Assembly (NCBI GenBank): GCA_937978655.1
Contig: CALJUX010000012.1
Coordinates: 3,438-67,437, forward strand
Reading direction: 5' to 3'
Source: an uncultured Chromatiaceae bacterium
GTDB taxonomy: Bacteria > Pseudomonadota > Gammaproteobacteria > Enterobacterales > Alteromonadaceae
Length of the DNA stretch: 64,000 nucleotides
Part shown: positions 38,216-41,186 of the stretch, in pieces
Numbering within the stretch: position 1 is the stretch's first letter
How the letters are laid out: each line of letters starts with the position of its first letter
The notes under the pieces: model-generated
Database searches by the model: none
The model's input: the letters and a program-made list of their open reading frames with translations, nothing else
What the model was told of the DNA's origin: nothing
Made by a program: the position numbers and the translations under genes

Positions 38216-38569
38216 TTAACGGCCATCTTCAAAACGCAGCGATGCGTTCAGGTTTTCATAAGTACCGTCGGTATACAGCACCAGCACTGACGCTGAATAT
38301 TCGACAAAAGAATAGGCAGTGAAGGCGCAGCTGGCAGTGGTTTTGCTTTGACATACAGAGGGCGATTGCCAGATGTATTGGCTGACCGCTTTGGCGGTAT
38401 TTTCGACTTTAAAAGACGCCGGTGCTGCGCGTTTACCCCAGATCATGGCGTCGCAGTAGCCGATTTGGCTGTCGCCACCGACGGTGCAGCGTAAGTCCGC
38501 CGCAAAGGCAGAAGAGCTCAGTGCTGACGCAGATAACATAAGTGCAGATAAGATCAGTAATTTTTTCAT
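38216..38569 (-). CDS. hypothetical secreted protein (4 Cys)
   Basis: Start at MKKLLILSALMLSASALSSSAFA (AGGA upstream); 117 aa with no recognised domain. Confidence 0.45.
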   Translation of the reverse strand: MKKLLILSALMLSASALSSSAFAADLRCTVGGDSQIGYCDAMIWGKRAAPASFKVENTAKAVSQYIWQSPSVCQSKTTASCAFTAYSFVEYSASVLVLYTDGTYENLNASLRFEDGR

Positions 38570-38730
38570 CGGGATGTCCTGTTTTTTTGCTGGTTTTTGT
38601 TTGGATGTTTCCGGTAGAGGAAACGGTTCCAGCATGCAAAATGCGCAAGGGCAGGCCTAGATCCTGTGGTGTGATATCAGAAATTTATGCAGGTTTTATC
38701 AGCGGTTTATCAAATGCCTGCTGCAGGTTT

Positions 38731-39344
38731 GGTTTTTTGCCCTGACGGGCGGCGTTTTTGATTTATTTTTCATTTTTTCCTGCTGCCGCTAGTCCGTCTA
38801 GCAAAGAGTTCACCTGCCGGTGAGGCACTTGTTGCTGACGCAGGTCCTTTGCCCGGTTCCGCTCGAAAGCCCGCTGAAAAATGGCAATTTGAGGCGAAAA
38901 CGCAACTCGCGATTCGCTAGCGTCGAATCGCTCAAACACTCGTTTTCTTAAAACCTCAAATCACCATTTGTCATCGGCTCGCTCCAACGGGCAGCCTGCT
39001 GCAGTAGTTAGATTTGCTTTAAAACAATGTTCAGTAAAAACAGTAACAGCTAAGAAAACCAGTCCCCCGTTGGAGCGAGCCGATGCAAATCAATAGTTTG
39101 AGGTTTTAAGACGGCGGGTGTCTGAGCAGGCTGACGGTAGCAGCCTGCGAGTTACGCCGGCGCCTCAAACTGTTGATTTTCAGCGGGCTTTCGAGCGTAA
39201 CCGGGGTCGGTTTTTCTTTGGTTACTTTCTTTTGCTGAAACAAAAGAAAGTAACTCACCGGCAGGTGAACTCTCTGCTAGACGGTCTCACCGCAGAGGAG
39301 ATAATAAATATCACAGTAAAGCCGCCGCCCGCAGGGCAAAAACC
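38731..39344. repeat. 614-bp imperfect palindrome: two diverged inverted copies (38731-38990 and 39066-39344) of a hairpin-rich module around a 75-nt AT-rich centre
   Basis: Reverse-complement blocks include catcggctcgctccaacggg / cccgttggagcgagccgatg, cttaaaacctcaaa / tttgaggttttaag, ccgctcgaaagcccgctgaaaa / ttttcagcgggctttcgagcg, tcacctgccggtgag / ctcaccggcaggtga and ggttttttgccctgacgggcggcg / cgccgcccgcagggcaaaaacc. The internal hairpins covary (see finding). Confidence 0.85.
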
Positions 39345-39359
39345 AGCGCAGCCAGACAC

Positions 39360-41186
39360 CTACTGATCCAAATACTCGGCAATCAAATCCAGAAACTCAT
39401 CGCCATAACGGCTGAGTTTGGTCTGGCCGACGCCGCTGATGGCGAGGAAATCGCTGCGGCTGGTGGGCATTTGCTGGGCCATTTCGATTAACGATGCGTC
39501 GCTGAATACGACAAAAGGCGCGACGTCGGTGCGTTCGGCGATTTGTTTGCGCAGCGCGCGTAGTTTGCTGAACAGCAGCCGGTCGTAATCCTGTTTTTGC
39601 TGGACTTTGCCGGCTTTCGGTGACGTCGGTGCGCTTAAGCGCGGAATCGCCAGTTGCAGGCTGGTTTCGCCTTTGAGTACCGGCCGGGCGGCTGGTAATA
39701 ACTGCAGCACGGAGTGGCGGGTGATGTCTTGTTGCAACAAACCGTAGTGAATCAGCTGGCGCAGTACTGACAGCCAATAATCATGGCTTTTGTCTTTGCC
39801 GATGCCGTAAGTGGACAGTTTGTCGTGGCCAAGTTCAGTGATTCTCTGGCCCTGACTGCCGCGCAGCACGTCGATGACATGGTGCATACCAAAGCTCTGG
39901 CCAACACGAAACACACAAGACAGCGCTTTTTGCGCCAGCTCAGTGCCGTCAAAACGCTGTGGTGGGTCTAGACAAATATCGCAGTTGCCGCAGGCCTGCT
40001 GACTGGCTTCGCCGAAATAATTCAGCAGCACCTGGCGGCGGCAGGTCTGGGCTTCAGCAAAAGCTGCCATCGCATTAAAACGCTGCAAAGTTACTTCAAT
40101 CCGGCTTTGGTTTTCGTCGGTTTCAATCCATTTACGGGTGCGCGCCGTGTCGGCCGGGTCGAATAGCATGATGGCTTCGGCGGCAACGCCGTCGCGGCCG
40201 GCGCGGCCGGTTTCCTGATAATAGGCTTCGATGGTGCGCGGCAAATCAAAATGCACGACAAAGCGGATATTTGGTTTATTCACGCCCATGCCAAAAGCAA
40301 CGGTAGCTACAATCAGCTGCAGCTGGTCGCGTTTGAACTGGTCCTGCACCAGCGCGCGTTGCTCGTTACTGAGGCCAGCATGATAAGCGCCAACGGCAAA
40401 GCCTTTGCCTTTGAGCTGCTCGGCCAGTTCGTCGACTTTTTTACGTGACGAACAATAGACAATACCGCTTTGATTTTCCTGGCTTTTCAGTAATGTGACC
40501 AGCTGTTCCAGCGGGCGGAATTTCTCCAGCACTGTGTAGCGGATATTGGGTCTGTCAAAGCTGCTGATGCTGATAAAAGGTTGGTACAAACCCAGCTGCT
40601 GGCGGATATCCTGCTGCGTCGCCGGGTCGGCGGTGGCGGTCAATGCCAATAACGGCACTTGCGGGAATTGTTGTTTCAGCCGCGATAAGGCGATGTAATC
40701 CGGCCGGAAATCGTGGCCCCATTGCGACACACAATGCGCTTCGTCGATGGCAAACAGGCTGACGCCGACATCACCGAGGCGCTGCAAAAACTGCTCCTGC
40801 AGCAGTCGTTCTGGTGCCACGTACAGCAGCTTAACCTGGCCATCGCGTAAGCGGCGGAACACGTCCAGCACCTGTTCACGCGCCAGGCTGCTGTTAACAA
40901 AATCAGCAGCAATGCCCATCGCCTGTAAACCGTCGACCTGATCTTTCATCAGCGACATCAACGGCGATACCACCACAGTCACGCCCGGCAACAACAACGC
41001 CGGCAACTGATAACACATCGATTTGCCGCCGCCGGTTGGCATCAGCACAAAACAATCGCGGCCAGCCAGCACCTGCTCGATGATCTCGACCTGACCAAAA
41101 CGAAATTCGCTGTAACCAAAGGTTTGTTTCAGCGTTTGGTGTAAAAGATCGGGAGTAGAGGATGCTGGGTGCAAAGCGATGGTCAC
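39360..41186 (-). CDS. recQ: ATP-dependent DNA helicase RecQ
   Basis: FGYSEFRFGQ, PTGGGKS, DEAHCVSQWGHDFRPDY, the zinc-binding CGNCDIC, and a C-terminal HRDC region; 608 aa. Confidence 0.95.
   Translation of the reverse strand: MTIALHPASSTPDLLHQTLKQTFGYSEFRFGQVEIIEQVLAGRDCFVLMPTGGGKSMCYQLPALLLPGVTVVVSPLMSLMKDQVDGLQAMGIAADFVNSSLAREQVLDVFRRLRDGQVKLLYVAPERLLQEQFLQRLGDVGVSLFAIDEAHCVSQWGHDFRPDYIALSRLKQQFPQVPLLALTATADPATQQDIRQQLGLYQPFISISSFDRPNIRYTVLEKFRPLEQLVTLLKSQENQSGIVYCSSRKKVDELAEQLKGKGFAVGAYHAGLSNEQRALVQDQFKRDQLQLIVATVAFGMGVNKPNIRFVVHFDLPRTIEAYYQETGRAGRDGVAAEAIMLFDPADTARTRKWIETDENQSRIEVTLQRFNAMAAFAEAQTCRRQVLLNYFGEASQQACGNCDICLDPPQRFDGTELAQKALSCVFRVGQSFGMHHVIDVLRGSQGQRITELGHDKLSTYGIGKDKSHDYWLSVLRQLIHYGLLQQDITRHSVLQLLPAARPVLKGETSLQLAIPRLSAPTSPKAGKVQQKQDYDRLLFSKLRALRKQIAERTDVAPFVVFSDASLIEMAQQMPTSRSDFLAISGVGQTKLSRYGDEFLDLIAEYLDQ

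Follow-up and report, generated by a model that had tools for sequence, protein, structure and literature searches.

Paired, inverted structured modules beside recQ belong to an uncatalogued family of imperfect palindromes in Rheinheimera/Alishewanella-type gammaproteobacteria

The palindrome beside recQ

In a 64,000-nt stretch of contig CALJUX010000012.1 from an uncultured Chromatiaceae bacterium (the window, with positions counted from its first letter), a 614-bp imperfect palindrome lies between the start of a 117-aa open reading frame (ORF) on the minus strand (38569) and the stop of recQ (39360), the two neighbours named in a sequence-only reading of this DNA. RecQ is complete, with DEAD, Helicase_C, RecQ_Zn_bind, RQC and HRDC domains, and the 117-aa ORF has no Pfam match. 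The palindrome had been described as two copies of a single structured module that have diverged and face opposite ways, and both repeat searches confirmed this. The left arm (38731-38991, minus) and the right arm (39066-39344, plus) are inverted copies: blastn aligned 38734-38990 with 39067-39342 at 70.6-70.7% identity over 279-280 columns (E 9e-30 and 3e-30), and an inverted-repeat finder returned an inner pair at 38852-38991/39066-39205 (140 nt, 75% complementary, gap 74 nt) and an outer pair at 38783-38830/39248-39295 (48 nt, 85%). The 74-nt centre has a GC content of 38%, compared with 55% for the window. No third copy of the arm was found in the 64-kb window by blastn, and a covariance model run without filters returned the same two copies only. 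This element is one locus of an uncatalogued family of ~0.6-kb imperfect palindromes in Rheinheimera/Alishewanella-type gammaproteobacteria, in which the inner half of each module is selected to fold on the outward-reading strand.

A repeat family with a strand-specific fold

A close strain represented by a metagenome contig (L001; other loci are likewise given by L numbers) is ~97% identical to the window over 7 kb, and the sequence directly beside its element shows 100% identity as far as the boundary near 38753. The invariant blocks CGTTGGAGCGAG and GGCTTTCGAGCG are 106-107 nt apart in all four arms of these two strains. Scanning one genome per species for this two-block pattern gave 29 stretches, 28 of which lie in Rheinheimera (texasensis, tilapiae, EpRS3 and metagenome-assembled genomes (MAGs)), Alishewanella longhuensis or related gammaproteobacterial MAGs; the remaining one is a chance match in Novosphingobium. 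Cultured carriers include R. texasensis DSM 17496, with loci on NZ_KL544005.1 and NZ_JONU01000016.1, and R. tilapiae KCTC 23315. A pattern built from the conserved unpaired motifs alone (GGTYTTAA-N8-GTGTYTGAG-N21-CGAGTTRC) recovered 45 modules in 28 known loci and added 68 metagenome contigs. Copies of the 141-nt core of the module numbered 157 with an nhmmer hidden Markov model and 153 with the covariance model. Nearly all of them are head-to-head pairs, with core 5′ ends 73-75 or 112-115 nt apart, and true singles are few. Each arm is a module of ~280 nt, and a pair sets two different module types 5′ end to 5′ end, with 74-115 nt of linker between them, one with an A-type 5′ extension and the other with a B-type or C-type in every case. 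The exact-pattern scan gave at least 3-4 loci per genome, a lower bound. A single module with ~75 nt upstream is kept in L012:3720-3935, L017:1910-2125, L052:3425-3640 and L063:1285-1500 (Rheinheimera sp. EpRS3, Alishewanella longhuensis and two metagenomes), where it looks like a stand-alone module at a stable locus.

The sequence-only reading had recognised no known RNA family here. In agreement, cmscan with Rfam 15 at gathering thresholds gave no match in the whole window and none in the modules of five further loci, and a permissive search of 38500-39500 returned only chance-level miRNA-type matches (E ≥ 0.08). A tRNA/tmRNA scan found nothing, distant-mode blastn against plasmid and phage collections gave no match, and two pattern scans of viral contigs gave none. 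Nothing relevant to an earlier description of the family appeared in the literature searched.

Folded as RNA, as had been proposed as a check, both arms are far more stable than shuffled sequence (left, -102.7 kcal/mol, z -4.6; right, -120.7 kcal/mol, z -5.8), and none of 200 dinucleotide shuffles equalled either arm. The consensus structure computed by RNAalifold from 33 cores of 141 nt is a rod. Its ends are joined by a closing helix (CCCG/CGGG) and then a helix GCGAGCC/GGCUU..GC. P1 follows, with 13 predicted pairs prolonged with mismatches and the internal loop GGUUUUAAG next to it, then P2, with 6-7 pairs and an internal loop in which GGUGUYUGA faces GAGUURC, and finally P3, with 8-9 pairs and the loop ACGNUAG. 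The hairpins of 8 bp with a 7-nt loop first noticed in the window are the P3 hairpins of its two arms, and 5 of their 8 pairs differ as had been stated; the long-range stems around them were recovered too, each with 24-nt arms separated by 59 nt and with 83% and 88% complementarity. The unpaired motifs GGUUUUAAG, GUGUYUGAG, ACGNUAG, GCGAGUURC and CGGGCUUUCGAGCG are near-invariant in the family, and the unpaired motifs are invariant in both divergent subgroups. The conservation of these loops suggests that they may bind a protein or make tertiary contacts.

The predicted helices covary throughout the family. In the alignment of 33 cores, 98.9% of cells were paired, compared with 83% when partners were shuffled and at most 44% when they were slid by 1-3 columns, and 19 of the 42 predicted pairs showed double compensatory changes. 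With 138 distinct cores the corresponding values were 98.0%, 82% and at most 45%, with double compensatory changes in 23 of 42 pairs and covariation of one closing pair too; these counts lean somewhat to structure, because this alignment was fitted to the covariance model. P1, P2 and P3 each exist as several discrete variants that are reassorted among copies. Hairpins are inserted at loops in some members, namely inside CGGGCUUU^CGAGCG (the caret marks the site), after UUUUAA and in the P3 loop, which is typically the usual mode of variation in structured RNAs.

Two further observations concern the loops. An insert of ~57 nt with several hairpins (GGGC-UAA-GCCC, a CCUUCGG motif, CAGC-UAAA-GCUG and CAGCGC-AA-GCGCUG) interrupts the otherwise invariant CGGGCUUU^CGAGCG at L095:4745-4818, L080:4691-4834, L059:5371-5517, L055:224-383, L044:2502-2636 and L069:1587-1732. 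In many copies, including the left arm of the window (38909-38931), the P3 loop and its closing pair form the self-complementary GCUAGC, and the 3′ domain contains a conserved GCUAG. A kissing or pseudoknot contact is possible; by eye, there was no covariation with the variable loop base. No pairing was predicted between the 5′ extension and the 3′ domain.

The fold is strand-specific. The outward strand, read from the centre outwards, was the more stable in 92 of 92 unique cores (mean -70.4 vs -51.8 kcal/mol), and in the window the covariance model gave the two arms 162 and 161.5 bits when read outwards, compared with 19.6 and 17.9 bits on the other strand. The strand argument drawn earlier from G-T as opposed to A-C positions in the two arms holds. 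Wobbles on the outward strand are G-U, with almost no A-C. No strand bias was seen in the outer 150 nt of the arms. The view that structure and not coding is conserved is likewise borne out by covariation across the family, and in one subfamily a 1-nt indel disrupts a small inward ORF. A coding or toxin reading was rejected: the one ORF that copies have in common (VSYFLLFQQKKVTKEK...) is hydrophilic, has no conserved start codon and is put out of frame by the 1-nt indel in the P1 type-c subfamily. The parts of the window element are collected in Table 1.

Table 1. Parts of the recQ-side element and the evidence on which each was placed
Feature	Positions	Strand	Basis
Left module, with B-type 5′ extension	38731..38991 (read 38991 down to 38731)	-	blastn vs right arm; alignments
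Left 141-nt core rod	38851..38991	-	covariance model 161.5 bits, E 7e-41; RNAalifold; fold
Left core closing helix	38988-38991 with 38852-38855	-	RNAalifold, fold
Left core P1	38953-38966 with 38882-38895	-	RNAalifold, fold
Left core P2	38941-38947 with 38896-38902	-	RNAalifold, fold
Left core P3 hairpin	38909-38931	-	RNAalifold, fold
Linker, 74 nt, 38% GC	38992..39065	.	alignments, GC count
Right 141-nt core rod	39066..39206	+	covariance model 162 bits, E 5e-41; RNAalifold; fold
Right core closing helix	39066-39069 with 39202-39205	+	RNAalifold, fold
Right core P1	39091-39104 with 39162-39175	+	RNAalifold, fold
Right core P2	39110-39116 with 39155-39161	+	RNAalifold, fold
Right core P3 hairpin	39126-39148	+	RNAalifold, fold
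Right module, with A-type 5′ extension, full architecture	39066..39344	+	blastn, alignments
Outward-facing terminator-like site straight after core: hairpin AACCGGGGTCGGTT then TTTCTTTGGT	39199..39222	+	terminator scan
Perfect 14-bp AU-rich hairpin	39221..39254	.	repeat finder; covarying pair in family
Inward-facing terminator-like site: AGTTCACCTGCCGGTGAGTT then ACTTTCTTTT	39238..39271	-	terminator scan
Right terminal small hairpin GCCC-TGC-GGGC, outer end of element	39322..39339	-	terminator scan, flank comparison
Left terminal small hairpin TTGCCCTGACGGGCGG then CGTTTTTGAT, inward-facing terminator-like	38737..38752	+	terminator scan
Left TCACC-N4-GGTGA box hairpin, without T-run	38810..38823	.	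alignment, terminator scan

Terminator-like sites, promoters and the central slot

Of 100 distinct modules, 97 have a U-rich tract on the outward strand no more than 32 nt beyond the core, and on the inward strand a TCACC-N-GGTGA box is followed by a T-rich run in 57 of 64. Terminator-like sites exceeded shuffles in the window and three other loci (8 vs 2.0, 11 vs 1.7, 5 vs 2.0 and 5 vs 1.7). Sites with the make-up of intrinsic (Rho-independent) terminators, a G+C-rich hairpin with a U-run right behind it on the transcribed strand, face inward in the window at 39271-39252 and 38737-38752 and outward at 39199-39212. These are sub-parts of the element, and intrinsic terminators do not account for the 141-nt rod. 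The inward site in the right arm, ~90-120 nt beyond the recQ stop, is probably the recQ terminator. The perfect 14-bp hairpin consists of the two opposed U-runs of the outward- and inward-facing sites; it is present as first described, but it is not an extra of the right arm: it occurs in most members of the family and has been lost from the left arm, which lacks the U-rich/AU hairpin segment. Identity between the window and L001 stops just inside the left terminal small hairpin. Among 31 pairs with usable flanks, the neighbouring genes converge on the element in 17; in 13 a single gene points towards it, and in only 1 do both point away.

The linker is made up of two 5′ extensions, the B-type in reverse complement and the A-type forward, which flank a short spacer. 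Sigma-70-like promoters were depleted in 44 distinct linkers (33, vs 59 ± 9 in shuffles), and matching by eye to sigma-54, sigma-32 and sigma-E consensus sequences revealed nothing convincing. The suggestion that the arms specify two divergent RNAs survives in part: the folding strands are those proposed (left minus, right plus), whereas divergent transcription gained nothing from the linkers and would be one of two explanations, because a folded single strand of DNA would account for the strand bias just as well. L085:8855-8922, from the more divergent subgroup, has a 145-nt AT-rich linker with two sigma-70-like matches (TTAACT-16-TATAAT and TTTACT-18-TAAAAT) facing the right-hand core; such matches are no general feature of the family.

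Seven loci have cargo-bearing pairs, in which the linker (38992..39065 in the window) is replaced by 0.35-1.75 kb of low-GC DNA (0.39-0.40) with accessory genes; most pairs have no cargo. A 228-aa UDG-superfamily protein is encoded at L025:240-976 and L029:6525-7260. L069:1726-3479 (~39% GC) carries the toxin-antitoxin pair ParD and ParE and a DUF7010 membrane protein, and its ParD region recurs in L098:2141-2605. L089:6914-8067 (~39% GC) encodes a DUF4238 protein that matches DUF4238-Pers, a candidate defence family of PADLOC, and small ORFs occupy L057:3880-4332/L082:212-650 and L042:642-997. Five of these loci (L025, L029, L042, L057 and L082) form a trkA-side synteny group that holds three different cargos, the 228-aa UDG-superfamily protein, an 85-aa ORF and a 78-aa membrane ORF, and similarity within the group stops precisely at the 5′ ends of the cores. 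Where cargo is present, one of the cores begins 2 nt after the cargo stop codon and its own upstream region is replaced.

These features bear on whether each arm is a stand-alone, trans-acting small RNA (sRNA) gene, with A and B as paralogous siblings transcribed divergently and with accessory genes that landed between them by chance. A strand-specific folded core followed by a U-tract would suit an sRNA, as would the conserved loops, the combination of an A-type with a B- or C-type module in every pair, and the single-module locus kept across genera together with its upstream ~75 nt. We nevertheless consider this unlikely, given that linker promoter matches fall below shuffle expectation, that one core abuts the cargo stop codon with its upstream region replaced, that the left arm of the window has no outward terminator and that no target could be assigned to a seed-like single-stranded stretch.

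The core is sized like long integron attC sites and the cargo resembles the content of integron cassettes, and the QUAD and LDR repeats of E. coli proved to be type I toxin-antitoxin loci. An attC-like site, a type I toxin-antitoxin locus or a small-protein gene would however be a very surprising outcome. The paired R″/R′ sites (RYYYAAC, GTTRRRY) that terminate the 57-141-nt imperfect hairpin of an attC site were absent, the ends pairing as CCCG with CGGG; a GTTGGAG stretch near the 5′ end stays single-stranded, with nothing at the 3′ end to pair with; the sites form inverted pairs or singles and no co-oriented array; and no integrase recurs in ~770 kb of flanks. As to toxin-antitoxin loci, no conserved small hydrophobic ORF was found, the sole shared ORF being the hydrophilic, frame-shifted one without a conserved start.

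Three observations concern the surroundings. At non-syntenic loci, genes for sigma-54-dependent response regulators (NtrC family) end beside the element (L006:3832-5256, L033:3175-4599, L053:7627-9042 and others), which may reflect the mere abundance of these paralogues. The window has a 15-nt tandem duplication at 38529-38558 (GCAGATAACATAAGT/GCAGATAAGATCAGT), within the N-terminal signal-peptide region of the 117-aa ORF. Finally, the element breaks short-read assemblies, which matters for metagenome binning of Rheinheimera-like taxa. Every short-read contig with the exact 117-aa protein or the exact RecQ terminates inside it; the contig ends of L001-L005 and L103 fall at window positions 38745-38903 and 39228-39245, and two contigs stop at ~39228-39244, inside the perfect AU-rich hairpin.

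Mosaic arms, interpretation and known systems

Loci of the family are syntenic across species; beside recQ, the element is present in the window, L001, L008, L036, L045 and L096. In L059:740-900, recQ is followed directly by a convergent cytochrome c gene, with neither the element nor the 117-aa gene, and this is no clean empty site because the 117-aa gene is missing as well. A remnant lies beside the 117-aa gene in L053:7270-7640, where the outer parts of both arms are kept and both cores and the linker are lost. Arms within one genome are 70-92% identical, and the two arms of one pair are always among the least alike (70-75%). The elements show how a long palindrome can persist in a bacterial chromosome, with its arms kept different and each arm still foldable.

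The window and L001 differ by an inversion of the inner part of the element, including the linker, relative to flanks that are 100% identical next to it, and the arms of L057 are likewise flipped relative to L025. A simple inversion between the window and L001 was rejected, as the inverted orientation gave only 83% identity and the arms are three-way mosaics: in the gene-side arm of L001, the linker and P1 match the recQ-side arm of the window, P2 together with P3 represents a third variant, and at the outer end the match is to the gene-side arm of the window. The content of the element is thus replaced quickly. Such mosaics imply frequent exchange between copies and, together with partner arms that are always the least similar of their genome and core-less degenerate remnants such as L053, they might be taken as signs of a decaying palindromic terminator repeat without a function of its own, its structure only apparently conserved, through gene conversion and selection against perfect palindromes. 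Gene conversion alone does not create new compensated stems, however, and the 23 of 42 doubly compensated pairs, the 98% of cells paired over 138 distinct sequences, the unpaired motifs that stay invariant across two divergent subgroups and the better outward fold in 92 of 92 cores make this explanation improbable.

We looked for signs of mobility in the copies and in their flanks. No direct repeat flanked any of 13 complete pairs, whose outer ends are inverted repeats (GGTTTTTTGCCC...), and recent transposition was rejected, as no arms within a genome exceeded 92% identity. Clustering of ORFs within 4 kb of the modules (~770 kb of flanks) revealed no recurrent transposase, recombinase or integrase; the clusters were spurious ORFs inside modules and common paralogues (sigma-54 response regulators and the LacI family). 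The sequence-only reading had allowed for an ordinary miniature inverted-repeat transposable element (MITE) or a repeat of the bacterial interspersed mosaic element (BIME) type. The element is indeed a multi-copy interspersed repeat, but it is not an ordinary MITE or BIME, because no target-site duplications were found in the 13 pairs and its copies are old, few and syntenic.

A non-autonomous element that moves or recombines by means of a recombinase or transposase from elsewhere is a different matter, and we regard it as the main, if rather unlikely, alternative. It could be a mobile insertion cassette or a giant relative of BIMEs and of REPINs (inverted doublets built from repetitive extragenic palindromes (REPs)), with arms that fold as single-stranded DNA; with an inverted pair, exposure of either strand presents one arm in the orientation that folds, and passengers may be carried in the centre. 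Several of our findings would be expected of such an element, including interspersed inverted doublets in multiple copies along with singlets, REP-like positions at gene 3′ ends, linkers without a sigma-70-like promoter, low-GC passengers (0.39-0.40) that differ at one locus, and inversions and mosaic arms; compensatory stem changes are also known from REPIN hairpins (PMC3116915). The lack of target-site duplications in the 13 complete pairs, the 92% ceiling on within-genome arm identity, the low copy number, the synteny of loci across species and the ~770 kb of flanks without a recurring transposase or recombinase speak against it. Furthermore, a REPIN hairpin forms between arms, whereas here each arm folds on itself, and mobility does not explain why a U-tract is conserved behind the core or why terminators are set back to back.

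The reading we favour, at somewhat less than even confidence, is that the modules are outward-read structured RNAs with back-to-back terminators that bracket a slot for accessory genes, their function being predicted from sequence comparison. The folded strand would be RNA, read outwards from the linker or from a gene in it; the transcript, of ~150-165 nt, would begin at or near CCCGUUGG and end at the U-tract that immediately follows the rod. Inward-facing terminators in the outer ~130 nt of each arm would stop converging flank genes, here recQ, and the pair as a whole would act as a two-way transcriptional insulator and as RNA 3′-end structures around the central slot. The conserved arms would also provide homology for recombination, through which arm segments are swapped, inner parts flipped and accessory genes exchanged in the slot.

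Several points weigh against this reading. A rod this elaborate is unnecessary for termination, and the outward terminator hairpin differs among subfamilies and is missing in the left arm of the window. Linker promoters are depleted as described, and conservation upstream of the core is modest. A role at cargo 3′ ends alone cannot explain the conservation, because most pairs have no cargo. In addition, G-T wobbles and loop expansions also fit a folded single strand of DNA. A bolder reading, to which we give only a small share of our confidence, takes the paired modules as the boundary sites of a new cassette-exchange system: fixed chromosomal landing pads whose two inverted arms, folded strand-specifically as RNA or single-stranded DNA, would direct the capture, inversion and replacement of small accessory and defence genes in the centre, with an integron-like effect, another site architecture and a putative enzyme.

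If the cores are indeed RNAs as in the favoured reading, they would constitute a new, strongly covarying class of structured RNA, and with ~150 examples, 23 covarying pairs and invariant loops the class would therefore be ready for Rfam-style curation. Whatever the molecule, the elements mark fixed chromosomal sites at which toxin-antitoxin and defence-type genes are exchanged between strains.

Among known systems, REPINs offer an evident comparison. They are extragenic and interspersed, lie mainly after gene 3′ ends, occur as inverted doublets with a spacer and as singlets, have compensatory stems and are vertically inherited and long-lived (PMC3116915). The recQ-type elements resemble REPINs and BIMEs in their position at gene 3′ ends, their inverted doublets with a spacer, their singlets, their compensatory stems and their long-lived, vertical inheritance. 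BIMEs, moreover, combine partners of different types (Y and Z REPs) and are mosaic, as are the recQ-type elements. However, an arm here is ~280 nt long with its own three-helix rod, whereas a REP has ~20-40 nt and REPIN doublets have spacings of 71-110 bp. There are few loci per genome (3-4, a lower bound), whereas REPINs number tens to hundreds, many of them near-identical. Helices covary within each arm and not between arms, and partner arms are only 70-75% alike. No counterpart of the association of REPINs with REP-associated tyrosine transposases (RAYTs) was found within 4 kb of the modules (~770 kb of flanks), and the centre here can hold cargo genes.

MITEs and mobile insertion cassettes (Correia/NEMIS, ERIC, TIMEs and MIC231) are similar in their intergenic, non-coding inverted ends with nothing or passengers between them and in their possible terminators. 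They differ from the recQ-type elements, which show no target-site duplications (13 pairs), no near-identical copies, and ~280-nt arms that are ~70-75% alike with strand-specific, RNA-like covariation; we know of no parent insertion sequence. Integron attC sites share the conservation of structure over sequence, the function of a single folded strand and small, cassette-like accessory genes (toxin-antitoxin pairs and DUF proteins), whereas the recQ-type elements have no R″/R′ sites, form inverted pairs, come with no integrase that we could find and have U-tracts after their cores.

Mosaic repeats, and fixed sites that swap accessory genes by homologous recombination in conserved flanks, are familiar from the neisserial intergenic mosaic elements and minimal mobile elements, but their repeat units and lineage are unrelated and the neisserial repeats have no large covarying rod. 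Two homologous structured RNAs at one locus, with compensated differences in their stems, are found in HK022 putL/putR and in OmrA/OmrB, and the put sites are divergent around a central gene region. By contrast, the elements described here, as putative RNAs, form a multi-locus repeat family in which no promoters were found. In conclusion, what sets the recQ-type family apart from known interspersed palindromic repeats is its scale, a covarying RNA-like fold inside each arm, the heterotypic make-up of its pairs and a slot for cargo genes.

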